From: Planctomycetota bacterium
GTDB lineage: Bacteria > Planctomycetota > PLA2 > JAEUHO01
Reading direction: 5' to 3'
Assembly (NCBI GenBank): GCA_965223505.1
Contig: CBDCWP010000044.1
Location: 32,001 to 96,000 of the forward strand
DNA: 64,000 nt
Shown: positions 32,213 through 50,213 of the stretch, piece by piece
How the letters are laid out: each line of letters starts with the position of its first letter
How positions within the stretch are numbered: the stretch's first letter is position 1
Position numbers and translations under genes: made by a program
The notes under the pieces: generated by a model
Database searches by the model: none
Told to the model about the DNA's origin: nothing
What the model saw: the letters and a program-made list of their open reading frames with translations, nothing else

Positions 32213-32421
32213 GGATCTGTTCAGCTCCTCTCGGTGCCGTTCGAAAACAGCGACAAACGATGCGAGAGATTGAGCAGAGACCCTCTCTCTGCCCTGCCTG
32301 ACCGAGCCGCTTCCGCGAACGGAACCGACTCCGCCTCCCTACGACGCGATAGAACAATCGAGGGTGGTCACGCCCGTGTCATAAACCGTGACAGGAAAAC
32401 GGATTCCGGCGCGTGGGCGGG

Positions 32422-34224: not shown

Positions 34225-34353
34225 GGGGGGACTGTATCAGGGGTGCGGGTGCGCGCATCGGACCCGCACCCCGTCACCGATGCCGCCCCCGCGCCGGATC
34301 CCGGCGCCCGGATCGGTATCGGGTTGGGAGACCCGACCGGTCGGGTTCGGACG

Positions 34354-34968
34354 CTACGGCGCGACGCGGTTCTTCAGCGGCGACTGGGTGCCTTCGAAGT
34401 GCACCTTGCTCAAGCCGGCGGCGACGAACGTGTCCAGCACGCGGATCACGTCGCCGTGCGGCACGCTCATGCCGTACGGCGGCGGCGCCACGATCTCGGC
34501 GCGCGTTTCGGGATCGCGGTCGACGAACGCCCACTTGGCCTCGATCACGCGCTGAATCCGTTCCATGACCTCGTCGTACGCGGCAATCCGCGACGCCTCG
34601 TTGCTCTTGTCGATGCTCCACTCGCCGGCCGGCAAGCGGTACGTGTGACTGCCGTCGATCTTCACGAGCGTGTACGCCTCTGCGGGATTCTCGCGGTTCT
34701 TGCGGAACAGCTTGATCTTGATCCGCGGCGCCGTGTCCTCGATGAGTTTGGGAATGTCGGTCGGCCCGCGGTCCTTGGGCATGCTGGCGTCGATGCGTTG
34801 GTCGACGGTTTTGAACTTCAGGCTGAGCAGGAAGAAGATGATGAGCTGAAACACGATGTCGATCATCGGTGTCATGTTCATCTCGGTGTCGTCCCCGGTG
34901 GCCCAGACGGTGGGTCTGCGCCCACTGCCGTCACTCGGGGGAGACCCTGCGTTGGAAGAGTCTGTCAT
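34354..34968 (-). CDS. ExbD/TolR family protein (third copy)
   Basis: AGGAG RBS; MNMTPMIDIVFQLIIFFLL. Confidence 0.85.
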   Translation of the reverse strand: MTDSSNAGSPPSDGSGRRPTVWATGDDTEMNMTPMIDIVFQLIIFFLLSLKFKTVDQRIDASMPKDRGPTDIPKLIEDTAPRIKIKLFRKNRENPAEAYTLVKIDGSHTYRLPAGEWSIDKSNEASRIAAYDEVMERIQRVIEAKWAFVDRDPETRAEIVAPPPYGMSVPHGDVIRVLDTFVAAGLSKVHFEGTQSPLKNRVAP

Positions 34969-35277
34969 TTGTCCGCTCCTGGTGAAGGTGCGGACGGCCG
35001 AACACGGATGTGTCGGCGAACGGGGGTCTGCCGACAGCTTACCTTGGTAGGCGAACGCGACAACAGGGAGAAAGTCGTTCGGGCTTGGGCGACGCGCGCT
35101 GCTCACTCGCATACGGGAAGCGGGAGCGAGGCCGGGACCGGGAGCGGCGTCAACGGCCGTCGATGAGTGCGCGGAGCGACCGCCGTGCGCCGAGGGCTCC
35201 GCTCGACACTCCCGCTAGCCGTTTGCAGAACGGAAGCTGGGCGTCACGCAATGTCGCGTTGGATCGACGACCAACGG

Positions 35278-35859
35278 CTACTTCTGCAGTCCTTGCCCGG
35301 TCATGGTGCCGCCTTCGCTGCTGCGCAGCGGCGGAGCCGCACCCTCGAAGACGACCTGCTGGATGCCGATGTCCACCAGCATGTCCAGCACGCGCACGAT
35401 GTCGCCGTGCGGAACCGCGCCGCCGTCCGGCGGCATCGCGGCGATCTCGCCCTTCACTTCGGGGCTGCGCTGCTGCGCCGCGAACTTCGCGTCGACGACC
35501 TGCTTGATCTGCCCGAACAGGTTGTCGTACAGCGCGAGCCGCGCTTCCGAACCCTTTGCATCCTTCGGCCACGGGCCCTTCGGCAGGTTGAACGTGTGGG
35601 TGTTGTCGATGCGGATCTTCGTGTACGCCTCGAGCTCCTTGCCCTTCTCCTTGCGGAAGAGCTTCACCTTGATCTTCTCGAATTCCGGCGGGAAGGAGGG
35701 CGTGGGGGCCAGGCCGCGGTCCTTCGGCAGCTGGCTGTCGATGCGTCGGTCCACCTCTTTGAACTTCAGGCTGAGCAGGAAGAAGATGATGAGCTGGAAC
35801 ACGATGTCGATCATCGGCGTCATGTTCATTTCGGTGTCGTCGCCTTGCGCGATGTCCAT
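35278..35859 (-). CDS. ExbD/TolR family protein (second copy)
   Basis: AGGAG RBS; MNMTPMIDIVFQLIIFFLL; VPHGDIVRVLD. Confidence 0.88.
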   Translation of the reverse strand: MDIAQGDDTEMNMTPMIDIVFQLIIFFLLSLKFKEVDRRIDSQLPKDRGLAPTPSFPPEFEKIKVKLFRKEKGKELEAYTKIRIDNTHTFNLPKGPWPKDAKGSEARLALYDNLFGQIKQVVDAKFAAQQRSPEVKGEIAAMPPDGGAVPHGDIVRVLDMLVDIGIQQVVFEGAAPPLRSSEGGTMTGQGLQK

Positions 35860-35868
35860 GATCGACTC

Positions 35869-36381
35869 CTACTTGTCCGTTTCCTTGACCGGCTGCTTCA
35901 CGGCGAACTGCATCTTGTAGATCTTGATCTTCTGGTCCGCACAGACCTGCATGATCCACTGCACGTACTGCCACTTCGCGGCGCGGTCACCGTGGATCAG
36001 GACCGGAATCATGCTCGACGAGTCCGGCTCGCTGAACTTCGGGTCCGCCGTGAGCGCCATGAGCTCTTGACGCAGCGCCCGAAGCGCCATTTCCTGCGCC
36101 ATCGGATCGGCCGACGACAGGCTCCACGAGTTGCCCTTGAACGTGACGGTGCCGTTCGACTCGAGGTTGATGACGAACCGCGGCGTCTTGTCCGTCGGAT
36201 CCTCTTCGTCCTCGATGCCCTTGTACGCGTGCGGAAGATCGACCGGCACGAACTCCTTGGTCGTGAGGTCGATCGTCAGCATGAAGAACACGACCAACAG
36301 GAAGGTCATGTCGATCATCGGCGTGAGGTTCATGTTGGCTTCGTCGGAATCGACGACAGCCTTGCTCCGCTTACCAGCCAT
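35869..36381 (-). CDS. ExbD/TolR family protein (first copy)
   Basis: MNLTPMIDMTFLLVVFFML; VDLP; VLIHGDR. Confidence 0.9.
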   Translation of the reverse strand: MAGKRSKAVVDSDEANMNLTPMIDMTFLLVVFFMLTIDLTTKEFVPVDLPHAYKGIEDEEDPTDKTPRFVINLESNGTVTFKGNSWSLSSADPMAQEMALRALRQELMALTADPKFSEPDSSSMIPVLIHGDRAAKWQYVQWIMQVCADQKIKIYKMQFAVKQPVKETDK

Positions 36382-36439
36382 TGCGCCTCCTCGGATTCAC
36401 CGGGTCGGACTTCTTGTTCATCGAGCTGCCAGCGGGCGA

Positions 36440-37132
36440 CTAGCGGCTGCGGAATCGCTCCGTCATATCCTCGAGGATACCGGCGAAGTCGATCGAGATG
36501 CGCGTGGCCTTGTTCCGGAAGTACTGGTACGCGCTCACCGCGGGAATCGCGACGAGCAGACCCAGGAAGGTCGTGACCAGCGCGGCCGAGATCCCACCGG
36601 CGAGGTCCTTCGGCGTCACCTTCGCGCCGAGCGCGACGATGGCTTTGAAGGCCCCGATCATGCCGTACACCGTTCCGAACAGGCCGAGCATCGGCGCGAC
36701 GTTCGAAAGGAACAGCATCCAGCTCACCTTCTGCTGAAGCTTGACGGCCTCGATGCCGGCGGCGGCCTCGATGGCCTCCTTGACCTTCGGGTAGCCCTCG
36801 TTCAGGCGCGGAAGGCCGGCGGCCAATGAGTTCGTCAGGAAGTTCGGCTCCGACTCACAAAGCTCGAGCGCCTCCTGGTACTCATCTTCTTCCAGCAACG
36901 CTTCGAGCTCGTCGATGAGCTCGGGCGGGCAGATCTTGTCGCGCCGCACGTTGACCGAGAACTCGATGACGAGCGCCAACGTCGCGATGGACAGGAAGAT
37001 GATGACCCAACCGATGGCGCCACCCTTGGTCACGACGTCGGAAAGGATCGAGTCGGCGTGTGCGGACGCGGGGAACACGACGGCCGTGAGAACGAAGAGG
37101 GCAGTCAACACTGCGAAGGTCGTCTTGGACAT
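36440..37132 (-). CDS. MotA/TolQ/ExbB proton channel protein
   Basis: Signal-like N-terminus; APMLGLFGTVYGMI; LAGGISAALVTTFLGLLVAIP. Confidence 0.92.
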   Translation of the reverse strand: MSKTTFAVLTALFVLTAVVFPASAHADSILSDVVTKGGAIGWVIIFLSIATLALVIEFSVNVRRDKICPPELIDELEALLEEDEYQEALELCESEPNFLTNSLAAGLPRLNEGYPKVKEAIEAAAGIEAVKLQQKVSWMLFLSNVAPMLGLFGTVYGMIGAFKAIVALGAKVTPKDLAGGISAALVTTFLGLLVAIPAVSAYQYFRNKATRISIDFAGILEDMTERFRSR

Positions 37133-37359
37133 GGCTCCAAAGCACTCCAAATGGGGGCCCCGAGGGGTTCTCGGGGCGGGCGTACGGGCGTCGAAGGGTA
37201 CCTCCCACGCTTGTTTCTTGCTACTCCGTACCAAGCGCTGGGCGCCGGGTCCGTCGCAGCTTCACGAGGTTGCGCCCTTTTCGGGCCTCCGTCGGGGCGG
37301 CCGCCTCGCGCGATCGGTTGTCGGGTCTCCTGAATCGACCGGGAATGGTGTGGGCCGCG

Positions 37360-38763
37360 CTACTTCCGCGCCCACTCCGTGTCTGAGTAGTTGGACTTGA
37401 GCGCCTTGCGCGCCTGGTCCCGCATCTTCTCGTACATCTCCTTCGCGGCGGGCTTCTTGGCGGACTCGGCCGCCTTCGACGCCGCTTCGGCGAGGTAGTA
37501 GTGGGCCAGCGCCGCCTGGTCCCGGACGCCGAAGTTCTTGACACGCACCGTGTCGAAATGGACCAGCGCCTCGACGGCCTTGCCTTCGTGCAGGTACGCC
37601 AACCCCAGGCCGTTCGAGGCGACCGCCTGCACCTCCGGGTCGCGCGCGCCGCTCACGATCGCGTCGGTCACCGCCTTGGACTGCCCGGCGAACTTCGACT
37701 TCAACGCGTCCGGCATGCCGGCCTCGATGAAGACCCGCAGCCGGTTGTAGGTCGCCGCGTTGTCCGCCTCGAGCGCCTGATCGAGCTTGACCTTCGCTGC
37801 GCGAATCCGCGCCCGACTGTAGTACCGACCGAGCTCGAGCTGGAGGCACTTGCGCATCTCGTTCTTGAGGAGCTGGCTTACGATCGTCAGCGCAGACTGG
37901 TACGCCTTCGACGCGTCCTCCGCGTTGCCCTTTGCTTCCTCGATGATGCCGCCGCCCAGCGCCGCTTCGTACGCCCAGCGAGGCGAGAGCCCGAGCGTGG
38001 CGTCGATCGCGTGACCCTGGAGCTCGTCGAAGACCTTCTTCGCCTCCGGGTACTTGCCGAGCCCCACGAGCGTCTTCGCATGCAGGAGCATCGCCTCGGG
38101 ATACCAGCGGCTGTTGCCGTTGGCGAACCGCGTGAGGAAGCCGCCGGTCGTCTTGAACTCGTCGTCCTCGGCGACCTGGTCCGGCCGCGGCATGTCCACC
38201 AACGCCATCAGGGCCTGCCCGAGGATGTCCTTGTTCTTCTCCTTCATGCCGCGCAGGTACAGCGCCTTGCAATAGAAGAAGTGTGCGTACTCACTCTGCC
38301 AACGGGGGCGCTGGTTGCCCTTCGTCGGGTCGCCGGCCATGAAGCTCTTGTACTTGGGCTCCTCGCCGAGCGTGTCCCAACCGCCGCCGTGGACCGTGAA
38401 CAAGGCCTCTGCGGCTTCCTGATAGCTCCCGCGCCGGATGAGGTCCCGCGCCGACTTGATCGTCTCGGCCTCCGCGTCGTTCACGTCGCCGCGCCGCACG
38501 GACGCGACCTCGATCGTGGGGATCTTCTGCTCGGGGCCCTTCGCGCGCTCGCGGTACATCACGAACTGCCAGGTCTCCGACGTGACCTCGTAGACGGTGC
38601 GCGTCGATCGCTCGCACGTCCGGAGATCGATGACCTCGATCTCGTCCGCGGCGGCCTGCGTCGCAAAGGAGAGTCCCAGGACGAAGAGTCCCAGGAGTGC
38701 CAAGCCTCGAATGGATGCGTGCATGGGTGCGGTCCTCTTGATTGCGTCGTTCATGGCGGCCAC
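37360..38763 (-). CDS. Exported TPR-like protein
   Basis: Signal peptide ending AAA-DE; repeated Ala-rich helical hairpins; C-terminal YSDTEWA. Start uncertain (38763/38754/38724). Confidence 0.7.
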   Translation of the reverse strand: MAAMNDAIKRTAPMHASIRGLALLGLFVLGLSFATQAAADEIEVIDLRTCERSTRTVYEVTSETWQFVMYRERAKGPEQKIPTIEVASVRRGDVNDAEAETIKSARDLIRRGSYQEAAEALFTVHGGGWDTLGEEPKYKSFMAGDPTKGNQRPRWQSEYAHFFYCKALYLRGMKEKNKDILGQALMALVDMPRPDQVAEDDEFKTTGGFLTRFANGNSRWYPEAMLLHAKTLVGLGKYPEAKKVFDELQGHAIDATLGLSPRWAYEAALGGGIIEEAKGNAEDASKAYQSALTIVSQLLKNEMRKCLQLELGRYYSRARIRAAKVKLDQALEADNAATYNRLRVFIEAGMPDALKSKFAGQSKAVTDAIVSGARDPEVQAVASNGLGLAYLHEGKAVEALVHFDTVRVKNFGVRDQAALAHYYLAEAASKAAESAKKPAAKEMYEKMRDQARKALKSNYSDTEWARK

Positions 38764-41700
38764 TACTCGTCCCCGTCCCCGTTGGGCTTCGGCTTCTCGG
38801 GTTGCTCGTCGTTCTCTGCGTCCGCGGCCATGTCCTTGGGCATCTTGCGCAGGTCCAACACGAGCTTCGGCTGGATCATGTCGTTGAGCCGCTTCAGTGC
38901 GGTTTCGAGGTCCGCGATGGTCCCCGGCCGCTCCGATTCGCCGAGCCGCGGATAGCGCGACTTGAGGCCGCGCAAGATCTTGCCCGCGTACTCGAGCATC
39001 GTCTTGGCATCCGCCTTGGCGGCGCCGGGGCTCGCACCGCGCGCCCGCTCGGCGGCGTTCAGCATGGCGTTGAGCCGGATGACCTGCGTTTCCCAGAACT
39101 CCTCGGAGTCGTCGTCGACCTGCATGAGCCCGCGCAGCAGCGTGCCGCAGAGGTTGATGGCTTTCACGTCGTCGCCCTCACGGCCCGACTCGGCGTAGGA
39201 CTGCGCAAGCGCCATGCGGAACGAGCGACGGTAGTCGCCGTGGATCCGGTAGAAGACGGCGTCGAAGCCGGCGTTCTTGAACGCCGCCACCGTGCGCTTC
39301 AGCGTCTGGTCGTCTTCCTTCGCCATCTCGCTCTTGAAGCGGCCGAGCGCCTCCTTGTAGGTGCGGTCGGCGCGGGCGCTTTCGAACTTCGGGATGGGCG
39401 TGCCGCCGGGACTCCCGAGCTCCTTGACCGCTTTGCGGAAGCCGGCGACGTCCGACACGCGCGGCATCGGAAAGCGGAAGGAGCGCTTCTCGATCGGGTC
39501 GGTCCACGGCAGGACCACGAAGTCGCCCGCGAGCATGCCGACCAGGAGGTCGTTGTTCTCCGGAATGTTCGCGACCGCGCCTTGCAGCAGCTCGACGGCC
39601 TTCAGATTGAGCTCGCGCGCCGTCTTCTCGTCTTGCGCCGTGCTGGCGAGGTGCGAGTAGATCTTGCCGAGCTTGCCGAGCGCCTTCGAGCGGTCCTCGG
39701 CGGTGATGCCGGGCAGCTTCAGGTAGGCCTCGTTGAGCTCCTTCGCGCGCTCCCAGTTCTCGCGAACCTCGGGCTTGAGCTCCGTCGCGTAGAAGTACAT
39801 GTACGCGAACTTGTACAGATGCGACGGCGTCAGGGACTCCTTCAGCGCGACCATCGTCTTGTACCAGAGATAGTACTTCTCCGCGGCCTTCACCAGGTGC
39901 GGGTACATCTCCAGCTTGTACGCGTCGATCTTCTTGCGCTCTTCGATGAGCTCAGCTTCGAGCGTTTCGCGTTTCGCCGTCAGCTCGCGCAGCTCCTTGT
40001 TCAGCCGCGCGATCGTCTTGATGATGCCGTCGCGGATGAGCTGCTCGTTTGGGTTCTTCTCGTCCTTGAAGTCCGGGCGGCCCTTGAGGTCCTTCTCGGC
40101 CTCGTCGCGCTCCGTCTTGCCGATCTTGGTATCACCGCCGCTCGCCATGGCGCGGTCGTACGTGTCGATCAGCTCCTGCTTCTTGCGGCGTGAGCCGTTG
40201 AGGTCGACGAGACGCTCCGCGACGCGGTTCTCGTCCTTCTCCGCGACCTTGAGCCGGTAGAGCAGGCCCTTGGCGCGTTCGTCTGGCGGACCCTGGATCT
40301 TGGCCAGCGAGGCCTTGAGGTTGGTTTCGATCTCCGAGTACTTGCTCTCGAAGTAGCGGGCCAGCCCGAACGTGATCTTGTGCAGCTTGTTGTAGGTCGG
40401 GTACTTGGCCACGAGCTTGTCGAGGTACTTCTCGGCGTTCTCGATGTCGCCCTTGCCGACGTAGGCCTGCACCTGGTTCCCCAGCGCGCCCGACAGATAC
40501 GGAAGGGGATCGAGGTCGCTGTGTTCGGCGGCGAACGTCTTCAGGAGATCGAGCACCGCGTCCCACTGCTCGAGCTCGACCAACGCGAGGCTCTTCCAGT
40601 AGATGGTTTGGCCGCGCGCCTTGCGTGCACGCTTCGCCCAGTCCGACTCGCTCTGCTTGAACTTCGCCTGCGCGACCGGACCGTCCCAGTACTTCAGGGC
40701 GGCGTCGGACTCCTTGATCATCCCGCGCCAATCCTTGCGGGCGAGCGCGCAGCGAATGATGTAGACGAACGCTTCGTTCTGCAGGCGCGCTTCGGGGTCC
40801 TTCGCAACGCGCCGGAATCCGGACTCCGCCTTCGACAGCGTCGACTTCCAGCCGCTCTTGCCCTCGTTGCGCTCCTTGATCGCCTGCTTGCGGTTGGCGA
40901 TCGCGGCCTGGATCTCGCTTTCCTGCTCGGACGGATGGCCGCGATAGTCGCTCGGGAACGAGTCCTGCACGGCTTTGAAGCGATCGAGATAGATCTTGGC
41001 GTCCGTCTGCACGTAGAGCTGGTCGAGCAGGCCCATCGCCTGTCGTCGAAGGTTGCCCGCCATGACGAGGTTCTCGTCGTTCTCGTCGTTCGTCGTGCGC
41101 GGAATGCGCCCGTCGATCCACGCCTCGTGGATCGGCTCCAGCGCCAGGCTCGCCGACAACAGGTCCCCGAGGTTCTTGTAGCAGATGGCGATCTTGCGCC
41201 ACGACGGGACGCCGAACTTCATCAGGTCGTCCGTGCTGTCGGTCATGGCGACGATCACGCGCTGGTAGGCGCCGATCGCGTCCGTGTAGCGCCCCTTCGA
41301 AAACTGGCTGTCCGCCACGCCCATCAGGACCTCCGCCGACTGGCCGCTGCCGCCGTTGGTGGTCCCGCCGCGCGTCACGAATTTCTCGAGCAGATCGTTG
41401 GCCTTCTTCTCGAGGTAGCCCTTGCCCTTCTCGCTCGCGATGCTGGCGGCCTGGCTGGCGATCTTGATCGCCTCGTTGGTCCGATCCTGGGCGTCCTCGA
41501 GCCGCGCCCACTGCAGGAGCGCGTGGATGCCGTCGTCCGTGTCACCGATCGTCGGGTGCCGCACCATCATCTTCTTGAGGTACGTGCTCCCGGTGCGCAG
41601 GAAGTTCTCCCCACCGACGCGGCCGGCGCTCAGGCAGAGCTGGCCGATGTGGTTGTAGCCGCGCGCGATGATGCGCAGCGTGTCCCCGTCCACGTGCTGG

Positions 41701-42563
41701 GTCTCGACCGTGGTGTCGAACCACTGCAGCGACTGGCGGTACCAGCTGAGTTGATCTTCCTCGCGCTGGGCGCACTTCGCGAGCTCCCAAAGCGCCTGTC
41801 CGTAGATGTCGGATGCGTACGCCGCGACGGTCTCGCCGTCGAAGAACCCGATGAACTCGTCCAGGTCGTTGTTGACCGACTTCAGCGCGTTCTCCGCCTG
41901 CGCGCTGCACGGATCGTGCACGAGCGCCGCGTAGAACTTGCAGACCACGAAGTAGTACTGCGCGATCTGCTGCATCGCGGTCGCCTTCTCGTCGTCCCAG
42001 CCGCGGCGCAGGGTGTCGAAGTAGCTGATGGCGCCCTCGACCATGTCGCGCGCGTCCGCTTGCACCTGCGTCGCGTTCGTTCCGCGCTCCTCCATCATCT
42101 CGGGCTCGCTCATGAGCCGGCTCTGCGCCCACTGGACGAACTCGAGGCGCGTCGTTCCGATCAGGTTCTTCGCCTCGTTGACGCGCGGGTGATCGGCGTT
42201 CTTGCGAACGAACGTCTCCATGTCCTCGACCGCGCTCTTGAAGAGCTTCACGACCTGCTCGTACGGAACGTCCGGGTTCGCGCGGGCGGCGATCGCGGCG
42301 TTGCGCGTGAGATCCGCGAGGCCGTACTTGGCGAGGTCCTTCTCGGACTCGCTGCGGTTCCGGTCGTCGAGCATGCGCTGGTAGACCTTGCGCGCGAGGT
42401 CGAACCACGACGAGTCGGCGGTCTGACGGCCCTTGGCGGCCAGCTGTTGGCCGAACTCGAAGTCGTCACTGCCCGCGCAGGCGGACGGCGTGCCGAAGGC
42501 GAGCAAGAGGAGAGAGAGGAATACCGTGGGGAGAACCAGACGTCGTACGCGACGAGTCAACAT
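38763..42563 (-). CDS. Very large exported TPR-like/coiled-coil protein (1266 aa)
   Basis: Signal peptide; TPR-like units (LMGVADSQFSKGRYTDAIGAYQRV; AEKYLDKLVAKYPT); long coiled-coil-like segment. Confidence 0.75.
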   Translation of the reverse strand: MLTRRVRRLVLPTVFLSLLLLAFGTPSACAGSDDFEFGQQLAAKGRQTADSSWFDLARKVYQRMLDDRNRSESEKDLAKYGLADLTRNAAIAARANPDVPYEQVVKLFKSAVEDMETFVRKNADHPRVNEAKNLIGTTRLEFVQWAQSRLMSEPEMMEERGTNATQVQADARDMVEGAISYFDTLRRGWDDEKATAMQQIAQYYFVVCKFYAALVHDPCSAQAENALKSVNNDLDEFIGFFDGETVAAYASDIYGQALWELAKCAQREEDQLSWYRQSLQWFDTTVETQHVDGDTLRIIARGYNHIGQLCLSAGRVGGENFLRTGSTYLKKMMVRHPTIGDTDDGIHALLQWARLEDAQDRTNEAIKIASQAASIASEKGKGYLEKKANDLLEKFVTRGGTTNGGSGQSAEVLMGVADSQFSKGRYTDAIGAYQRVIVAMTDSTDDLMKFGVPSWRKIAICYKNLGDLLSASLALEPIHEAWIDGRIPRTTNDENDENLVMAGNLRRQAMGLLDQLYVQTDAKIYLDRFKAVQDSFPSDYRGHPSEQESEIQAAIANRKQAIKERNEGKSGWKSTLSKAESGFRRVAKDPEARLQNEAFVYIIRCALARKDWRGMIKESDAALKYWDGPVAQAKFKQSESDWAKRARKARGQTIYWKSLALVELEQWDAVLDLLKTFAAEHSDLDPLPYLSGALGNQVQAYVGKGDIENAEKYLDKLVAKYPTYNKLHKITFGLARYFESKYSEIETNLKASLAKIQGPPDERAKGLLYRLKVAEKDENRVAERLVDLNGSRRKKQELIDTYDRAMASGGDTKIGKTERDEAEKDLKGRPDFKDEKNPNEQLIRDGIIKTIARLNKELRELTAKRETLEAELIEERKKIDAYKLEMYPHLVKAAEKYYLWYKTMVALKESLTPSHLYKFAYMYFYATELKPEVRENWERAKELNEAYLKLPGITAEDRSKALGKLGKIYSHLASTAQDEKTARELNLKAVELLQGAVANIPENNDLLVGMLAGDFVVLPWTDPIEKRSFRFPMPRVSDVAGFRKAVKELGSPGGTPIPKFESARADRTYKEALGRFKSEMAKEDDQTLKRTVAAFKNAGFDAVFYRIHGDYRRSFRMALAQSYAESGREGDDVKAINLCGTLLRGLMQVDDDSEEFWETQVIRLNAMLNAAERARGASPGAAKADAKTMLEYAGKILRGLKSRYPRLGESERPGTIADLETALKRLNDMIQPKLVLDLRKMPKDMAADAENDEQPEKPKPNGDGDE

Positions 42564-42981
42564 GAGAACGCTTCCTTCTCGGGTCGGTCGAATCCAGGAG
42601 CGGATCGGGACGGGGAATGTGTCCGACGGGGCGGCGGGTTCTGGGGTCCCGGCGCTTGCCCTACTGCGTTGCCCACCAGAGCGCGCGAAATAGGGGATGC
42701 GAGCAGCCCACCCGGATTCCCAGGGCGCGGATTCTACGGGTGCCCTCGTAGGGGGTCAATCGGACCCGGAACGTTCGTTCCCGGGTTGCCGAAGACCGCG
42801 TGAGGTCGCGCAGTCCGCGCATGGTGAATCGATGGACGGTTGCCCGGTACCAGAAGGGCGAGAGAAGCCGGCGGGAGCGGGTCGGCGCGGCAAGAGCCAC
42901 CATAGCGCAATCGGAAGGCGGTGCAACGGACAAAAGTCGCGCGCTGAGGGGGGCGCCCGATCGAATCGGGATGGGGACGTT

Positions 42982-43048
42982 GTAGCGACCCTCGTGGTCG
43001 CCCAATCCGTCGCCTGCCCCGCTGGGCAGCCACGAGGGCTGCCCCGAC
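42982..43048. repeat. Degenerate REP pair
   Basis: GTAGCGACCCTCGTGGTCGCCC 42982-43003 and GGGCAGCCACGAGGGCTGCCCCGAC 43024-43048. Confidence 0.85.
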
Positions 43049-43074
43049 GCCGACGCATCTTCGGCAACGAATGG

Positions 43075-43105
43075 AAAAGGGGCCGCGCTGAGCGAGCGCG
43101 GCCCC
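43075..43105 (-). terminator. Intrinsic terminator of secretin paralog 2
   Basis: 11-bp stem GGGGCCGCGCT/AGCGCGGCCCC, with AAAA on + (U-tract on -). Confidence 0.8.
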
Positions 43106-43134
43106 TCTCGGGATGTCCGTGATGTCCGGAAGGA

Positions 43135-45900
43135 CTAGCGGCGGAACCAGCGGCGCGGGTTGCCGACGCCCGGAAGGCCCTTGTCCTCGGGGCCCGTGCT
43201 GTCCGGACAGCCGCACGAGGGCGGAGCCTCGTCGGCCGGCCGCACCGGCGTCCAGCGGTTGGACGGGATCTCCGGCACGTTCAGGTTGTCCTTCGGCTCC
43301 AGCTCCTCCAGGTTCACGATCTCGGCCGTGATGAGGACGAGCAGGTTGCGGCGGTTCACGTAGTTGCCCTTGCGGGACAGCAGGAACGAGAGCACCGGCA
43401 GCTTCGAAAGGAAGGGCGTGCCGCTCTCGAGCGTCTCCTGCTCGTAGAACTTGAGACCGCCGAGCAGCAGCGTGCCGCCGTCGGGCATGTTGACCGTCGT
43501 GCGGACGCGGCTGACGCGCAACTCCGGAATCTGGATGACGACCGGGGCCGACGCCGTGACCGGACCCGAGGCGAGCGACGTGCTGAACGTCGCGATCGGG
43601 CGGGTCAGGACGGCCACCGTCGGGCGCAGCTCCAGGTTCACGAAGCGGCGGTCCGCGGAGACCACCGGGCGGACGTCGAGGACGATGCCGTCGAGGATCG
43701 TCTGGACGACCGGGTTCGCGATGTTGGACGCCTGCGCGATCTCGACCTCGTAGTCAGCCACGTAGGCGACCTGGTTGAGCACCTGCACGTTCGCGCGCTG
43801 CGTGTTGTAGACCGTGACGCGCGGGGCGGTGATCTGCTGGATGCGCTCGCTCTTCTCGACCGCGCGCAGGATCACCTCGATCTGGGTGTCGTCCAGGAAG
43901 GTGTGCTGGAAGGAAAGGCCGCCGGAGCCCGTGAGGACCTCGGGGTTGCCGAGCAGCACGTCGAACAGGTTCTCGACGCGAGCCGAGTAGGCGCCGTCTT
44001 GACCGTCGTTGTAGAAGATACCGGCGTCGTTGGCCGTACCGACCGAGGACGGCTCCGGGTTCACGCCGAACGGCACGCCGAACGGGTTGCCGGGCGACCC
44101 GAAGAAGACGTCGTCCTGGACGACCGCCGTACCGAGACCCGGCACGCCGATGCCCTGCGAGTTGTCGCCCAAGCCGCGCACGTCGACACCGACGTCGCGC
44201 AGGAAGTTGTCCTCGGCCGTCAGGAAGCGGACTTCCAGGTTCACCAGGATGCCCGTGTTCGCGCGGAGCTCCTCGAGAAGGTTGCCGATCTGGTTCAGGA
44301 TCGGCTTCGTGTTGCGCACGATCAGGATGCCGTTGCGCGCCTCGATGTTCGCCGGGTCGTCCCAGGCGCCTTCACCACCGATGGTCTCGCGGATCAGGTC
44401 CGGGAGGTTCTCGGCCGGGAAGATCGGAAGCGGATCCGGGAGCTCCGGCGGCTCCGGCGGCGTGAAGTTCGAGGGCGTCAGGTTGATCTCCTGGCCGACG
44501 AAGTTCTGAATCGCGACGTTGAGATCCTTCACGTCGAAGTAGCGCAGCTTCATGGTGCCGCTGATCTCGTCCTTGGTGGCGATCTTGATGACGCCGCCCT
44601 CGGCGATCCACTTGAGCTCGTAGTCCTCGGTGATGAGGTCCAGCACCGTGGAGACGCTGACGTCGTCGAGCTTGAGCGTGATCTGGACGTCCTCGCCCTT
44701 CTCCTCACGCGCCTTGGCGGTGATGAAGAAGTTGAGGCCGGTCAGGGTGCGCAGCAGGGCGACGGCGTCGTCCAGCGACGCGTCTTCCCAGTTCAGGCCC
44801 TGAATGCGCTGGTTCTCGATGACCGAGAGGATGCCGCCGAGCGACGCGTCCTCTGCCGCGTCGTCCGCGTCGCCGACCGCGCGGGGCTGGCGATGGGCGA
44901 TCTCCTCGAGCCAATCCTCGGGGAACTCGACCGTGCGGACCTGCGGCAGCGCGTCGTTCTCGACCTGCTGCATGATGCGCTTCCACTGGTCGTCGAAGCG
45001 ACGGCGCGCACTGATGTCCTCTTGCATGTGCTGCGCGTCGTAGCTGATCGTCATCAGACGCTCGGCATCGTCGTTCGTCGGGTCTTCGCGCAGGATCTGC
45101 CTCGCGTACTCGCGGGCCAGCTCGTAGTTGCCCTGGCGGAACGCCACGTTGGCTTCCTGGAAGTACGCGTGCATGCGGCCGAGACGACGCTCGCGCTCTG
45201 CGTTCAGCGCGTTCTCCTGCTCGATCTGCGCCTCGCGGATCTGCTCTTCGTGCGCGCTCCGCTCGGCGAGCTCCGACTTGTAGTTCGTGCGGTCGATGAG
45301 ATCGCGAATGCGCTCCGCGCTCATGCCGAAGTCCGCCGTCTCGTCGTACCAGGAGATGATGGCCAACGCCTTGCGGTACTCCTTGACCGCGCCGGCGTAG
45401 TTCTCCTGGCCTTCGAGCGTGCGACCGCGGTCGAGGTAGTTGCGAACCTCGGCGGCCGCCTGCTGGCGACGGACGTCTTCGACGCTCTTGCGCTCGCTCA
45501 TGTACGCGGCCGTCGTGCTGGGACGGTCGGACATGAGGTTCTCGAGCCCGTCGCGCGCTTCGATGTTGCTCGCGTCGAGGTCGAGTGCCTTCGCGAAGAG
45601 ATCCTTCGCCGTGTCGTAGTCGCCCTTGCTGACCGCGTCGTTGGCGCGATCGATGAAGTTCTTGATCAGGAACTTCTGACGGTCGGCTTCGACGGCGGCG
45701 GCGGCGGACTTCTCGTCGAGGTACTCGACGGCTTCCGGTGTCGCGGAGACGTCTCCGCCTTCGCCTTCCGCTTCCGCGACCACGACCGCGGTGTCGTCCG
45801 GCGAGCCGTCGCTCTTGGCGACGATGCGACGACGGCCTTGGCAGGCAGTCAGAGCGACGATCAAGACAGCTACAAAAAGGACGTGAACGGTGCGCTGCAT
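43135..45900 (-). CDS. Secretin-family lipoprotein with TPR-like region (paralog 2)
   Basis: Lipobox LTAC; TPR-like helices; LIVRNT; VNLEVRFL; APRVTVYNTQRA; TTVNMPDGGTLLLGG; PFLSKLPVLSFL. Confidence 0.85.
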   Translation of the reverse strand: MQRTVHVLFVAVLIVALTACQGRRRIVAKSDGSPDDTAVVVAEAEGEGGDVSATPEAVEYLDEKSAAAAVEADRQKFLIKNFIDRANDAVSKGDYDTAKDLFAKALDLDASNIEARDGLENLMSDRPSTTAAYMSERKSVEDVRRQQAAAEVRNYLDRGRTLEGQENYAGAVKEYRKALAIISWYDETADFGMSAERIRDLIDRTNYKSELAERSAHEEQIREAQIEQENALNAERERRLGRMHAYFQEANVAFRQGNYELAREYARQILREDPTNDDAERLMTISYDAQHMQEDISARRRFDDQWKRIMQQVENDALPQVRTVEFPEDWLEEIAHRQPRAVGDADDAAEDASLGGILSVIENQRIQGLNWEDASLDDAVALLRTLTGLNFFITAKAREEKGEDVQITLKLDDVSVSTVLDLITEDYELKWIAEGGVIKIATKDEISGTMKLRYFDVKDLNVAIQNFVGQEINLTPSNFTPPEPPELPDPLPIFPAENLPDLIRETIGGEGAWDDPANIEARNGILIVRNTKPILNQIGNLLEELRANTGILVNLEVRFLTAEDNFLRDVGVDVRGLGDNSQGIGVPGLGTAVVQDDVFFGSPGNPFGVPFGVNPEPSSVGTANDAGIFYNDGQDGAYSARVENLFDVLLGNPEVLTGSGGLSFQHTFLDDTQIEVILRAVEKSERIQQITAPRVTVYNTQRANVQVLNQVAYVADYEVEIAQASNIANPVVQTILDGIVLDVRPVVSADRRFVNLELRPTVAVLTRPIATFSTSLASGPVTASAPVVIQIPELRVSRVRTTVNMPDGGTLLLGGLKFYEQETLESGTPFLSKLPVLSFLLSRKGNYVNRRNLLVLITAEIVNLEELEPKDNLNVPEIPSNRWTPVRPADEAPPSCGCPDSTGPEDKGLPGVGNPRRWFRR

Positions 45901-46110: not shown

Positions 46111-46866
46111 GTGACCCCCGAAAACGACCCCCGCCCGCCCTCGCTGCACGCCGAGGCCCGGCTGTATCTCGAGTGGATGCGCGGCGCCGGGGGACGGTGG
46201 CTTCCGGCGGACGGACCGCCGCCGGCGCTCGAGACCCCGAAGCCGGTCGCGTCCGGCGCTCGCGGTGACGCGTCGCCGAAGCTCACACGGCCCGAGCGGG
46301 CCGCGTATCTGGCTGCGATGGCGGACGACGTGAAGCGCTGCACGCGCTGCCGCCTCTGCGAGACGCGCAACGAGACGGTGTTCGGCGAGGGCAGCCAGGC
46401 GCCCAAGCTCGTGGTCGTGGGGGAGGCGCCCGGCGCGGACGAGGACCGCACGGGCCGGCCGTTCGTGGGGCGCGCGGGGCAGCTGCTGACGAAGATGCTC
46501 GCCGCCATCGGGCTCGCGCGTGAGGACGTGTACATCTGCAACGTGCTGAAGTGCCGCCCGCCGAACAACCGCAATCCGCGGCCCGACGAGGTCGGCTCCT
46601 GCCGGCCGTTCCTGCAGGAGCAGCTCACCCTGCTCGATCCGCCGCTGATCCTCGCGCTGGGCAGCCCTGCGTCCCGCGAGCTGCTCGGCACGGAGCGGGG
46701 GATCGGCAGCCTCCGGGGCCGATTCGCCCGCACCCGGGGCGGATTCCGCGTGATGCCGACCTATCACCCCGCGTACCTGCTGCGCAATCCGGCCGCGAAG
46801 CGCGACGTGTGGCATGACCTGAAGAAGGTTGCGGCCGACCTGGGGCTGGAGATCCCGGGGCGGTAG
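46111..46866 (+). CDS. Uracil-DNA glycosylase, family 4
   Basis: CTRCRLC, GEAPGADED, PFVGRAG, KCRPPNNR, TYHPAYLLR. Confidence 0.95.
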   Translation: MTPENDPRPPSLHAEARLYLEWMRGAGGRWLPADGPPPALETPKPVASGARGDASPKLTRPERAAYLAAMADDVKRCTRCRLCETRNETVFGEGSQAPKLVVVGEAPGADEDRTGRPFVGRAGQLLTKMLAAIGLAREDVYICNVLKCRPPNNRNPRPDEVGSCRPFLQEQLTLLDPPLILALGSPASRELLGTERGIGSLRGRFARTRGGFRVMPTYHPAYLLRNPAAKRDVWHDLKKVAADLGLEIPGR

Positions 46867-46953
46867 GTAGGGGCAGCCCTTGTGGCTGCCCAACCGCACA
46901 TGCGTTGAGACCTGATCGACGAGCGCGTGGGCGACCACGAGGGTCGTCCCTAC
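46867..46953. repeat. REP pair between convergent genes
   Basis: GTAGGGGCAGCCCTTGTGGCTGCCC 46867-46891 and GGGCGACCACGAGGGTCGTCCCTAC 46929-46953. Confidence 0.9.
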
Positions 46954-47582
46954 TGCGGGCGCAGGACGGCGACCCACAGCTCGCGGCGGTACGCGGCAAG
47001 GCCGCGTGCGTCCACCATCCGCAGGCCCGCGGCCGCAGCCTCCTCACGTAACTCCTTTTTCGACAAGGTGTAACGGTCCCCGCGCCGCCTGGTGAACAGG
47101 CGCCGGATGCCCCGGCTCAGGTTGTGGAAGCTCACCGGGTGGTGGAAGGACAGCAGCAGCGTGCCCTGGGTCAGGGCCCGCAGGCCGCGAAGCACGCGCT
47201 CGCGGTGCGCCGCGTCCGGGAGGTGATGGAGGAACCGGAAGCAGACCACCAGGTCGGCGGGCGTGGCATCGGCGGGCACGGCTTCGAGGTCGATCGTCTC
47301 CAGCCCCAAAAAATGGGGCTTTCCGGACAGGCGGCGCTCGGCCTCGGCGCGCATCGCCGGCGACAGATCTGCGGCGCGGGTGGGAATCCCGCGTCCCATC
47401 AGCTGCTCCGCAATGCGTCCCGTGCCGCAGGGCACGTCCAGTGCGCTGCCGGGCGGCTGCGGCAGGTCGTCGAGCAGGCGGGAGAGCAGGGTCCATTCTT
47501 CGGCGTCGCGTTTGGCGCTGCGCGCGGCGTAAGCCCGGGCCTTGCCCGGTTCGTCGTACTTGGTGCGGCCGGCGTAGGACAT
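46950..47582 (-). CDS. Class I SAM-dependent methyltransferase
   Basis: LDVPCGTGR, ADLSPAM, DLVVCFRFLHH. Confidence 0.88.
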   Translation of the reverse strand: MSYAGRTKYDEPGKARAYAARSAKRDAEEWTLLSRLLDDLPQPPGSALDVPCGTGRIAEQLMGRGIPTRAADLSPAMRAEAERRLSGKPHFLGLETIDLEAVPADATPADLVVCFRFLHHLPDAAHRERVLRGLRALTQGTLLLSFHHPVSFHNLSRGIRRLFTRRRGDRYTLSKKELREEAAAAGLRMVDARGLAAYRRELWVAVLRPQ

Positions 47583-47680
47583 CGGCCCGAATGTAGGGGA
47601 TGGGATAGGAGGTGGCAGCCCTGATCCTCGGTCGTGCCAAGTGTGTTTACGGCATCAGCCGAGGAAGGAACTGCCACCCC

Positions 47681-48727
47681 ATGACTGCGTACCACGTCGG
47701 AATCGACCTGCACAAGAGTGTCGCCCAAATCTGCGTCCGTGATGCGAAGGGCGAGATCGAAGAGGAGCGGCGGTGGCGCCTGCCGGATCGAAAGGCGGCC
47801 GCGGCGCTGGTTGCGTTTCTTGGCACCTACGGCGGCGGGCGCTTCGCGGTGGAAGCGTTGGGCTGCAACCGCTGGTTCGTGCTGGCCTGCCGCGAAGCGG
47901 GTTTGGAGATGCTTGTGGTGGACGCCACGAAGCTCGATCTGAAGAAGCAGGGCAAGAAGACGGATCGACGCGACGCCCAGGAGATCTCGCGCCGGCTGTA
48001 CCTTGGCGACCTGGACCGCTACGCACTGACCTACTTCGCCACCGAAGCCGAGTTCGGCCAGCGCAAGGTGTTGCGGGTTCGGCATCAGCTCGTTCAGCAT
48101 CGAACCAGCGTGCTGGCGCACATCCGCGGCATGCTCAACGCGTACCTGCTGCGAGCGCCGGTGACGCAGCTGTACACCAAGCGCGGGATCCAGTGGCTTC
48201 GCGAGCAGCGACTGGGTGATGAGAACCAGGATCTGGCGCTGCAGTCGCTGGTGGATGTCGTTGCGGCTCTGCAGGAGCGCATCGAGAAGCTCACCGCTCG
48301 AATCCGCGAGTTGGCCGAGCAGGACGAAGTCTCAGGCTGGATCGTTCGGAATCTGCCACAGGCGGGAGCCCAGACGGCTCTGACGCTTCAAGCTGAGTTG
48401 GGTGACGCAACCCGCTTCCGCGGTGCTCGACAGATCTCGAGCTATGGGGGTGTCGTTCCACGCGTTTCGGCCTCGGCGGATCGAGCGCACCACGGCCGCA
48501 TGACCAAACGCGGAAACGCCGAGTTGCGTTGGGTGCTGGGGCAATGGGCGGTTCGGTTGCTGGCCTTCGACCCAGAGGTGAAGGCGTGGGCACAGCCGAT
48601 GCTCAGGCGCATGCACCGCAACAAGGTTCGAATGGCGCTTGCACGCCGGCTACTGGTGGGCGTGTGGGTGATGTTCTCGCGTGGCGAGGTGTTCTCGCTG
48701 CGTCGGTGCCTAGGCCAGGCTGCCTGA
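47681..48727 (+). CDS. IS110 family transposase/recombinase
   Basis: DEDD RuvC-like GIDLHK, VEA, KTDRRDA; Tnp domain AELGDATRF, YGGVVPRVSAS, GRMTKRGN..LR, ALARRL. Confidence 0.96.
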   Translation: MTAYHVGIDLHKSVAQICVRDAKGEIEEERRWRLPDRKAAAALVAFLGTYGGGRFAVEALGCNRWFVLACREAGLEMLVVDATKLDLKKQGKKTDRRDAQEISRRLYLGDLDRYALTYFATEAEFGQRKVLRVRHQLVQHRTSVLAHIRGMLNAYLLRAPVTQLYTKRGIQWLREQRLGDENQDLALQSLVDVVAALQERIEKLTARIRELAEQDEVSGWIVRNLPQAGAQTALTLQAELGDATRFRGARQISSYGGVVPRVSASADRAHHGRMTKRGNAELRWVLGQWAVRLLAFDPEVKAWAQPMLRRMHRNKVRMALARRLLVGVWVMFSRGEVFSLRRCLGQAA

Positions 48728-48960
48728 GCGAACGCACTGAGAGAGAGGAAGCGAAACCAGGAATCGGACACCAACGGGCGCGTACTCCGGCGGGCCGCTG
48801 AGCGCATCAGCTCGTGTAGGCGATTGAGAGGCGCGTCCGACTCCCCCTCATGACGCCGCCCGAATAGGCGAGCTCGAAAACCCGAGTGGACGGATCCGAC
48901 CCTGGCGACGCGGAAAGGACGCACGGCCGACAGAAAAGGGCTTGCCATTCCCTAAACCGG
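48728..48960 (+). ncRNA. Candidate bridge/seek RNA in the IS110 right non-coding end
   Basis: 233-nt non-coding end; stem-internal loop-stem at 48809-48874 whose loop strands match the insertion target. Confidence 0.55.
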
Positions 48961-49051
48961 CGATCCTTGTGGTCGCCCAACTCGGCGTCTTGGGCAGCCA
49001 CAAGGGGCTGCCCCTACCTACGGCTTGGGCAGCCACAAGGGCTGCCCCTAC
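48961..49051. repeat. Right half of the interrupted REP plus two inverted REP copies
   Basis: 48961-48978; GGGCAGCCACAAGG(G)GCTGCCCCTAC at 48992-49017 and 49027-49051. Confidence 0.9.
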
Positions 49052-49055
49052 ACCG

Positions 49056-49353
49056 TCACGTGGACGTGGACGTGAACGTGAACCTGCACGACACCTGGAT
49101 CGCTCAGCGGTTCCACGCATACGACCCGTCCGCGCCGACCGCTGCGCCCACTGGCGTCCATGTCTGCGCGGGATCGCGATCGGGATCGGGATCGGGTGCG
49201 GGGGGGCCGCGCCGTGAAGGGTCCTCACGTGAACGTGGACGTGGACGTGAACCTGCACGACACCTGGATCGCTCAGCCGTTCCATGCACTCGGCCCGTCG
49301 GCGCCGACCGCGGTGCCCACTGGCGTCCCTGCGCGGGATCGGGATCGGGATCG
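49056..49353. repeat. Two copies of a ~135-bp unit bounded by hexamer microsatellites
   Basis: Units start at 49056 and 49225: (CGTGRA)x4, conserved core CCTGCACGACACCTGGATCGCTCAGC...GCCCACTGGCGTCC, then (GGGATC)x3-4. Confidence 0.88.
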
Positions 49354-49448
49354 TGGGCTCCGTAGGGGCGGGGCGAGCCCCGCCCGTCGCGTGAACACCC
49401 CGGGGGGCAGACATTGCGACCCCTGCGCCCGCCGACCAACGCAAGACC

Positions 49449-50213
49449 ATGACCCAACCCGGGTTCCATGACGCGCCCGCAAGGACCTGGAGACCCGTCA
49501 TTCCCGTCAGCTTCGTCATCCCCTGCTACCAGGAAGAAGAGTCCCTGGCCGACTTCGCCGAACACCTCGCGCAAGTGCCCGGGGACGAGATCGTCTTCGT
49601 CGACGACGGGTCCCGCGACGGCACGGCGGCCGCGCTTGCCGAGCTGGCCTCGCGCGACGAGCGCGTGCGCATCGAGACCCACGAGCGCAATCGGGGCGTC
49701 GGCGCCGCCATGCGCACCGGCTTCGACGCGGCCCGGGGTGACATCGTGGTCGTCTACGACGTCGATCGAACGTACCCGCTCGACGATGCGCGGAAGCTGA
49801 TCGACGCGGTCGCGAACGGCGCGTGTGACGTCGCCTCGGCCACGCCCTTCGCGCACGGCGGCGGGCTCGAGCGCGTGCCCGTCTTCCGTCGTCTACTCTC
49901 GCGCGGTGCCGTCTGCGCCTATCGGGTCGTGCTGGCCGGCCGCACCCAGGGCATGACGACGTACACGTGCGCCTTTCGCGCCTACCGCGCCTCGCAGCTC
50001 GAGACCCTGCGGTTCGCGAGCGACGGGTTCCCGGCCGCTGCGGAGATCATCGGGCGCCTGCTGTTGCGCCGCGCGCGCGTGGTCGAGGTGCCGTCGACGC
50101 TGCGGGCCCGGACGGAGGGTTCCAGCAAGATGCGCGTCGGCCGAACGTTGCTCGGCCACCTCTGGAACTGCGCGCGTCTTCTCTGGATTCGTGTGACGCC
50201 TTCGCGGGCCTGA
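49449..50213 (+). CDS. GT2 glycosyltransferase (DPM1/polyprenyl-P-sugar synthase-like)
   Basis: SFVIPCYQEE, VDDGSRDGT, HERNRGVGAA, DVD, FRAYR, RTEGSSKM. Confidence 0.9.
   Translation: MTQPGFHDAPARTWRPVIPVSFVIPCYQEEESLADFAEHLAQVPGDEIVFVDDGSRDGTAAALAELASRDERVRIETHERNRGVGAAMRTGFDAARGDIVVVYDVDRTYPLDDARKLIDAVANGACDVASATPFAHGGGLERVPVFRRLLSRGAVCAYRVVLAGRTQGMTTYTCAFRAYRASQLETLRFASDGFPAAAEIIGRLLLRRARVVEVPSTLRARTEGSSKMRVGRTLLGHLWNCARLLWIRVTPSRA

Follow-up and report, generated by a model that had tools for sequence, protein, structure and literature searches.

An IS1111-type member of the IS110 family with a probable GG core, inserted in a GTAG-type REP of a Planctomycetota genome

In the window, that is, the whole 64-kb stretch of DNA analysed here, one REP of the GTAG type is interrupted by an element that extends from 47600 to 48958 and that, together with one GG, measures approximately 1,361 bp. 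With a probability that we put at roughly 85%, this insert is one apparently intact member of the IS1111 subgroup of the IS110 family, inserted into the REP by conservative site-specific recombination at GG. For an uncharacterised clade of IS110/IS1111 elements, the insertion allows the ends to be fixed to the base and points to a probable core and a probable guide RNA; it also extends REP targeting by such elements to a Planctomycetota genome. Targeting of this kind has been known since 2003–2006 from IS621, ISPa11 and ISPpu9/10 (as reported by Tobes and Pareja 2006 and Durrant 2024), and the guide RNAs of IS110/IS1111 elements were described in 2024; knowledge of how these elements work is unchanged by the present finding. 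The coordinates of all features are given in Table 1.

Table 1. Features of the interrupted REP and of the element within it, with positions in the window
Feature	Position	Strand	Sequence or remark
Left fragment of the split REP	47593..47599	+	GTAGGGG; its final GG (47598-99) is the left GG copy
Left terminal extension	47600..47605	+	ATGGGA; ACGGTA in the relatives
Left subterminal inverted repeat	47606..47621	+	TAGGAGGTGGCAGCCC
Long hairpin of the left end	47608..47680	+	3' arm ends at the start codon
Transposase gene	47681..48727	+	348 aa + stop; DEDD residues D9, E58, D95, D98; Ser S265
Long 3' non-coding region	48728..48958	+	Runs to the base before the right GG
Proposed seek/bridge-RNA domain	48758..48903	+	~148 nt; closed by stem 48758-48768 / 48894-48903
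Weak candidate right-target guide	48789..48796	+	GGCGGGCC; pairs 5/8 with core + CGATCC, top strand
Hairpin between the two candidate target guides	48797..48811	+	GCTGA-GCGCA-TCAGC
Candidate left-target guide	48814..48822	+	GTGTAGG (48814-20), then CG; same sense as REP left half ATGTAGG
Candidate right-donor guide	48842..48849	+	TCCCCCTC; pairs 6/8 with GG + ATGGGA, top strand
Hairpin	48851..48876	+	3' arm is the conserved GAGCTCG motif
Candidate left-donor guide	48878..48884	+	AAACC, then CG; sole variable block inside the conserved motif; equals last 5 nt of the element
Right subterminal inverted repeat	48938..48954	+	GGGCTTGCCATTCCCTA
Right terminal extension and right GG copy	48955..48960	+	AACC (48955-58) + GG (48959-60)
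Right fragment of the split REP	48961..48978	+	CGATCCTTGTGGTCGCCC
Inverted partner REP	48992..49017	-	26 nt, one extra base
Second minus-strand REP of the cluster	49027..49051	-	

Results

The REP family of the window

A degenerate 25-mer detected eight REP copies at up to three mismatches in the 64-kb window, compared with zero in each of 100 shuffles. Three further REPs were recognised by reading, namely a shortened variant at 42979–43003, the 26-nt minus-strand copy at 48992 and the split copy itself, which brings the total to 11 in 64 kb (10 besides the split one), mostly in inverted pairs. The REPs usually form an intergenic plus/minus pair and belong to two subtypes, CGACC...GGTCG and CAGCC...GGCTG. 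A short imperfect palindrome with GTAG, present in many extragenic copies and in inverted pairs, is what characterises REP/BIME sequences of the GTAG type, and all of these features were found. In the variant at 42979–43003, CGACC comes straight after GTAG, the three G in between being absent, and there is therefore no GG insertion point in that copy. At 46864–46891, the stop codon of a uracil-DNA glycosylase gene is immediately followed by another REP, whose inverted partner reaches 3 nt into a convergent methyltransferase ORF at its 3' end, within the stop codon. Pfam searches found no RAYT (Y1 transposase) gene among 39 ORFs (of 69 passing the GC3 filter), nor among three neighbours.

The interrupted REP

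Joining the flanks of the insert by their coordinates with a script gave a 25-nt REP without extra bases. The rebuilt 25-mer is identical to the intact REPs that begin at 5273 and 5361 at 23 of 25 positions and to that at 46929 at 22 of 25, and it matches the five copies of the CAGCC subtype at 18–20 of 25. It had been claimed that the joined flanks lie one mismatch from the REP consensus of the window, and the sole difference is indeed at position 11, with T instead of C. The split follows the seventh base of the REP, within the 5' arm of the REP stem, and this stem directly adjoins the core on its right side. The interrupted REP belongs to a cluster, in which it is the copy on the plus strand: the inverted partner named in the original prediction is present at 48992, and a second minus-strand copy follows it. 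A copy of GG is located on either side of the insert. The bases that border the two copies are G and C before them, and A and C after them; since these differ on both sides, the stretch shared by the two junctions is exactly 2 nt, which bears out the earlier statement that GG is found at both junctions without any longer duplication.

To the left of the insertion, a SAM-dependent methyltransferase gene on the minus strand (46950–47582; Pfam Methyltransf_25/11/12/23) has its start codon 17 nt from the edge of the element (gap 47583–47599), so the former upstream sequence of this gene has been moved 1.36 kb away. To the right, the interval between the REP cluster and a gene for a family-2 glycosyltransferase contains a 107-nt direct repeat (49056–49162 and 49225–49331; 90% identical, spacing 169 nt), each copy of which starts with ACGTGG/ACGTGA hexamer repeats and has a CGGGAT microsatellite after it (49169–49202 and 49334–49353). 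Elsewhere in the window, a run of minus-strand genes (29348–45900) consists of two large TPR-secretin genes and, between them, one ExbB/MotA-like gene, three ExbD-like genes and two large ORFs without a Pfam match.

Identity and layout of the element

The product of the ORF at 47681–48727 matches PF01548, the N-terminal RuvC-like DEDD domain (E = 5.8e-11), and PF02371, the C-terminal domain with the conserved catalytic Ser (E = 3.2e-19). It scores 181.5 bits with the NCBIfam model NF033542 ("IS110 family RNA-guided transposase"), whose cut-off is 140. The four DEDD residues and S265 are invariant in 19 sequences, comprising this transposase and 18 relatives of 46–79% identity. Its C-terminal half aligns to the solved chains of IS621 (8wt6) and ISCro4 (phmmer, E = 2e-5), and S265 coincides in the IS621 alignment with the Ser of the ESG motif. 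The latter residue is called S241 after Hiraizumi 2024, not after the numbering of the alignment. The catalytic motif here is S-A, compared with S-G. As is usual in IS110 elements, there are no terminal inverted repeats and there is no target duplication beyond the short core.

The family named in the original prediction is thus upheld by PF01548, PF02371 and NF033542, but the subgroup is IS1111 and not the IS621-like IS110 subgroup, because the element has a long 3' non-coding region and subterminal inverted repeats. Its left end comprises 81 nt upstream of the transposase gene, compared with 233 nt of non-coding sequence downstream, and the longer non-coding region is likewise 3' of the gene in the two relatives described below (L001 and L002). 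The left repeat matches the reverse complement of the right one in 13 of 17 aligned columns, with one indel; IS1111 elements have subterminal inverted repeats of 7–17 bp, and that of L002 measures 11 nt (91%). This layout agrees with the one described for IS1111 by Siddiquee et al. 2024. The terminal extensions are 6 nt at the left and 4 nt at the right, plus GG, in all three elements, so that they total 12 and not 10 or 9. They differ from the extensions of 7 (or 6) bp at the left and 3 bp at the right, which are typical of IS1111 without defining it.

The element has a G+C content of 64.4%, compared with 71–73% in the flanking genes, and its GC3 is below that of the host genes. No second copy or fragment of it was found in the window, where both tips occur once each. 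Among the matches listed from a collection of 5.8 billion protein sequences, the closest is 79% identical to the transposase. The collection contains at least 120 relatives, and those listed are mostly encoded on metagenome contigs of IS size (1–3 kb). A close plasmid-borne relative was not found in the plasmid collection, where no match reaches 60% identity and the best stands at 33%; the named IS families among the plasmid matches listed are ISHvo10 (33% protein identity) and ISPa25 (29%). Judged by these protein comparisons, the element is without a close named relative and its clade is uncharacterised. The MurJ encoded in the window is present in the protein collection at 100% identity, and the transposase is absent from it (best 79%). 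The nearest other proteins to this MurJ come from Planctomycetota MAGs, at 70% identity. The transposase gene may not have been called in the source annotation.

Relatives and the GG core

A genome scan produced 105 candidate stretches, of which two proved to be relatives. L001 is a 1,370-bp contig of a Gemmatimonadota MAG (55% amino acid identity) and L002 a 1,530-bp contig of a Burkholderiales MAG (47%). A plasmid locus of ISPa25 (L003) was left out, its target not being fixable without an uninterrupted site. Both relatives start with GG-ACGGTA-TAG..., and their right ends read ...CCTA-AACG in L001, where the contig stops, and ...CCTA-GAAG-GG in L002. The end layout common to the three elements is GG, 6 nt, repeat ... 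repeat, 4 nt, GG, with L001 lacking the right flank. Neither relative has flanks related to the REP: L001 shows CT (2 nt) before its left GG, and L002 shows TTGCGCC before the left GG and CGCAAC after the right GG, which, read through one GG, form a perfect palindrome.

Because the relatives keep their ends yet sit in other flanks, GTAGGGG is host sequence and not part of the element. The original prediction had named as a counter-indication that GTAGGGG should travel with the element; in both relatives it is absent and GG is kept. GG adjoins the conserved ends in all three elements despite their different flanks, which suggests that it behaves as the crossover core of the family. The cores of 2 nt reported for other members are CT in IS621 (Durrant 2024, Hiraizumi 2024) and AG in ISPpu9 (PMC12288879). 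As to the earlier proposal of a GG core and a circle, the retention of GG holds in three different contexts; the core is a probable one, and the circle is predicted from published mechanisms of the family.

The predicted circle junction and the left-end hairpin

The right end of each of the three elements was joined to its left end by script with zero, two or four G between them. With a single GG, -35-like and -10-like hexamers come to lie 17 bp apart in all three, compared with 15 bp for the same hexamers without G and 19 bp with four G. The -35-like hexamers are TTGCCA in the window (48942–48947, in the right repeat) and TTGACA and TTGACT in the relatives, and the -10-like hexamers are GATAGG in the window (47604–47609, at the left tip) and TATAGG and TATAGA in the relatives. 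The window copy has the weakest junction hexamers of the three; GATAGG has no T at positions 1 and 6, and it fails the rule of our sigma-70 scanner, which is a T at position 6. In the integrated form, the scanner found zero sigma-70-like sites. The junction that had been predicted, with one GG between the right and left ends, is supported by this arrangement of -35, 17 bp and -10, which forms only with a single GG in three of three elements, and such a circle junction would be predicted to build a promoter, by analogy with the published circle-junction promoters.

The long hairpin of the left end was recovered in all three elements by single-sequence folding, with z-scores of -3.98 in the window and -4.14 and -3.81 in the relatives. 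The sequences of its arms differ between the elements, and its outer arm is in each case the inner part of the left repeat. As the 3' arm extends as far as the start codon, the hairpin probably controls translation.

A candidate guide RNA in the 3' region

The domain proposed to form a seekRNA or bridge RNA is closed by a stem that has equivalents in L001 (1152–60 with 1287–95) and L002 (1231–46 with 1359–76), and the stem appears in all three folds. In duplex tests of the closing stem, 18 of 1000 shuffles were as good in the window, 174 of 1000 in L001 and 2 of 1000 in L002. The fold of the domain as a whole is no better than that of shuffles (z = -0.96 in the window and +0.32 in L001). When the 3' region and the left end were folded from alignments, the consensus structures contained little information, because MAFFT misaligned the arms, and single-sequence folds were used. 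A scan of the whole window at the Rfam gathering thresholds returned no family match, and an E-value scan of 47000–49600 gave only a chance-level miRNA match on the REP pair, which scored 21.9 bits where the gathering threshold is 95.

All three elements share the 3' motif GAGCTCGA-N5-CG-NN-TGGAC. The N5 block is AAACC in the window, CAACG in L001 and AGAAG in L002, and the last five bases of the respective elements are AAACC, AAACG and AGAAG, so that block and right tip match at 14 of 15 positions over the three elements, with three positions that co-vary. The sense of the block is that expected of a left-donor guide. For the candidate left-target guide, the 7-nt run anchored at the core was equalled by 12 of 2000 shuffles. 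The remaining anchored guide tests (seven of eight), which include GGCGGGCC and TCCCCCTC, were not significant, with 1060–2000 of 2000 shuffles as good. The right-target guide was paired by hand and positioned by analogy with L002. Just upstream of the hairpin that follows the right-donor candidate, L001 has ACTTCC and L002 has ACCTCC, which, again by hand, fit their shared ACGGTA.

At the right-target position of L002, GTTGCGCT pairs at 8/8 with the core and the right flank, and TGCGCC at the left-target position is equal to the left flank over 6 nt; the target of L002 is a palindrome, and the guide assignment there is therefore ambiguous. The 2-nt left flank of L001 (CT) does not fit its predicted left-target guide. 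Each guide pair is split by a hairpin, and the top-strand match precedes the bottom-strand match, which is the order reported for IS1111 seekRNAs (Siddiquee 2024). In all five readable left guides the next two bases are CG (window 48821–22 and 48883–84; L001 1265–66; L002 1280–81 and 1353–54), at the place where the published scheme would have the core, GG. The right halves of both known targets, in the window and in L002, begin with CG. We regard the specific guide assignments as an even bet.

Several other candidates were rejected. A hairpin carrying the left-donor block in its loop (CTCG/CGAG) loses two of five pairs in L001. Earlier candidates for the right-donor guide, CGTTCC in L001 and ATCGTCT in L002, fall within the closing stem. 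TGGAC is followed by a second variable block (GGATC, CGAAC and CAACC), whose registers disagree between the elements.

Discussion

Proposed mechanism and alternatives

The course of events that we consider most likely, in which the steps from excision to strand exchange are taken from published mechanisms of the family and fitted to the observed flanks, GG, residues and layout, would be as follows. The element would be excised as a circle, joining ...AAACC-GG-ATGGGA..., and its junction would provide a promoter made of TTGCCA, 17 bp and GATAGG. Transcription would cross the transposase gene and continue into the 3' non-coding region, which would yield an RNA of approximately 148 nt (48758–48903) bound by the transposase. 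The RNA would then align the circle, with its one GG, to the REP, and S265 and the DEDD site would exchange strands next to GG, leaving GG at both junctions without a true target duplication.

The sequence of one integrated copy cannot by itself separate a duplicated GG from a GG supplied by the donor, and the dinucleotide might be read as an ordinary 2-bp target-site duplication produced by staggered cuts, with ends ATGGGA...AAACC and a circle free of GG. This reading is very improbable, given that GG is kept beside conserved ends in three of three elements whose flanks differ, that the promoter hexamers are 17 bp apart only if the junction contains exactly one GG, and that the family is reported to recombine conservatively at a 2-nt core (Durrant 2024, Hiraizumi 2024; ISPpu9 with AG). 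We give practically no credence to the idea that the half-REPs belong to the element or came to lie side by side by chance: the flanks of the relatives are unrelated to GTAGGGG, the joined flanks agree with intact REPs at 23 of 25 positions, and the REP pattern never occurred in shuffles.

A different account concerns how the REP is chosen, namely mainly through recognition of the REP stem-loop by the protein, with little contribution from the RNA. The weak right-target guide, the position of the REP stem directly to the right of the core and a 2026 preprint on ISPpu10, in which the stem-loop of the target is given as an extra determinant of specificity, are all in keeping with such an account; we nevertheless think it quite improbable in view of the 7-nt left-target match anchored at the core, of the 8/8 right-target and 6-nt left-target matches of L002 to its own, different target, and of the RNA requirement of published family members (Siddiquee 2024). 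It is also unlikely, though somewhat less so, that the copy is a fixed relic, with the architecture described above but no longer mobile. Its presence as a single copy in 64 kb, junction hexamers weaker than those of both relatives and the poor fit of the right-target guide to the REP would agree with a relic, whereas the ORF is uninterrupted and free of frameshifts, all five catalytic residues are present, and neither the ends nor the left-end hairpin nor the RNA domain is disrupted.

Comparison with known systems

It is possible, but rather doubtful, that the element and its many metagenomic relatives represent an undescribed IS1111-like subclade, characterised by a GG core, extensions of 6 and 4 nt, the S-A motif and a compact, stem-closed RNA of ~148 nt with CG after the left guides. 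If this is true, the CG would leave the first core base unpaired, or the guide would read across the core into the initial CG of the right target. Such a subclade would vary the pairing scheme published so far and would add another natural pair of REP-directed recombinase and RNA for engineering.

Among the described elements, ISPa11 of Pseudomonas aeruginosa (IS1111 group) resembles the present one in its IS1111-type layout and in its fixed insertion point within a host REP (Siddiquee 2024; Tobes and Pareja 2006). Its seekRNA, derived from the 3' non-coding region, is reported to co-purify with the transposase and to carry the top-strand match before the bottom-strand match (Siddiquee 2024). 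The host phylum and the REP are different here, and the extensions are 6 and 4 nt plus GG instead of 7 and 3, a distinction drawn from the description of ISPa11. ISEc11 and ISKpn4, also of the IS1111 group, are described as giving rise, from their 3' non-coding region, to an RNA of ~150 nt and a shorter one of 80–100 nt, and this RNA is needed for movement and is reprogrammable (Siddiquee 2024). According to the same description, these two elements target a linear site and attC sites, unlike the present one, which is inserted in a REP.

In the IS110 group, ISPpu9 and ISPpu10 of Pseudomonas putida insert into REPs, mostly into REP clusters (BIMEs), with an invariant AG at either end, and they have been shown to form circles that carry a junction promoter (PMC12288879). 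Unlike the present element, they are described as having no subterminal inverted repeats, their RNA is encoded upstream of the transposase gene, and their core is AG, not GG. IS621 of E. coli (IS110 group) likewise targets REPs, within or next to the GTAG end, and has a CT core, a bridge RNA with four guides and Ser + DEDD chemistry (Durrant 2024, Hiraizumi 2024). Its RNA, however, is reported to lie in the left end, with the guide order reversed, and detectable similarity between the two transposases is confined to the C-terminal half. The details in which the present element differs, namely the GG core, the 6/4 extensions, S-A in place of S-G and the CG after the left guides, are variations and introduce no new principle.
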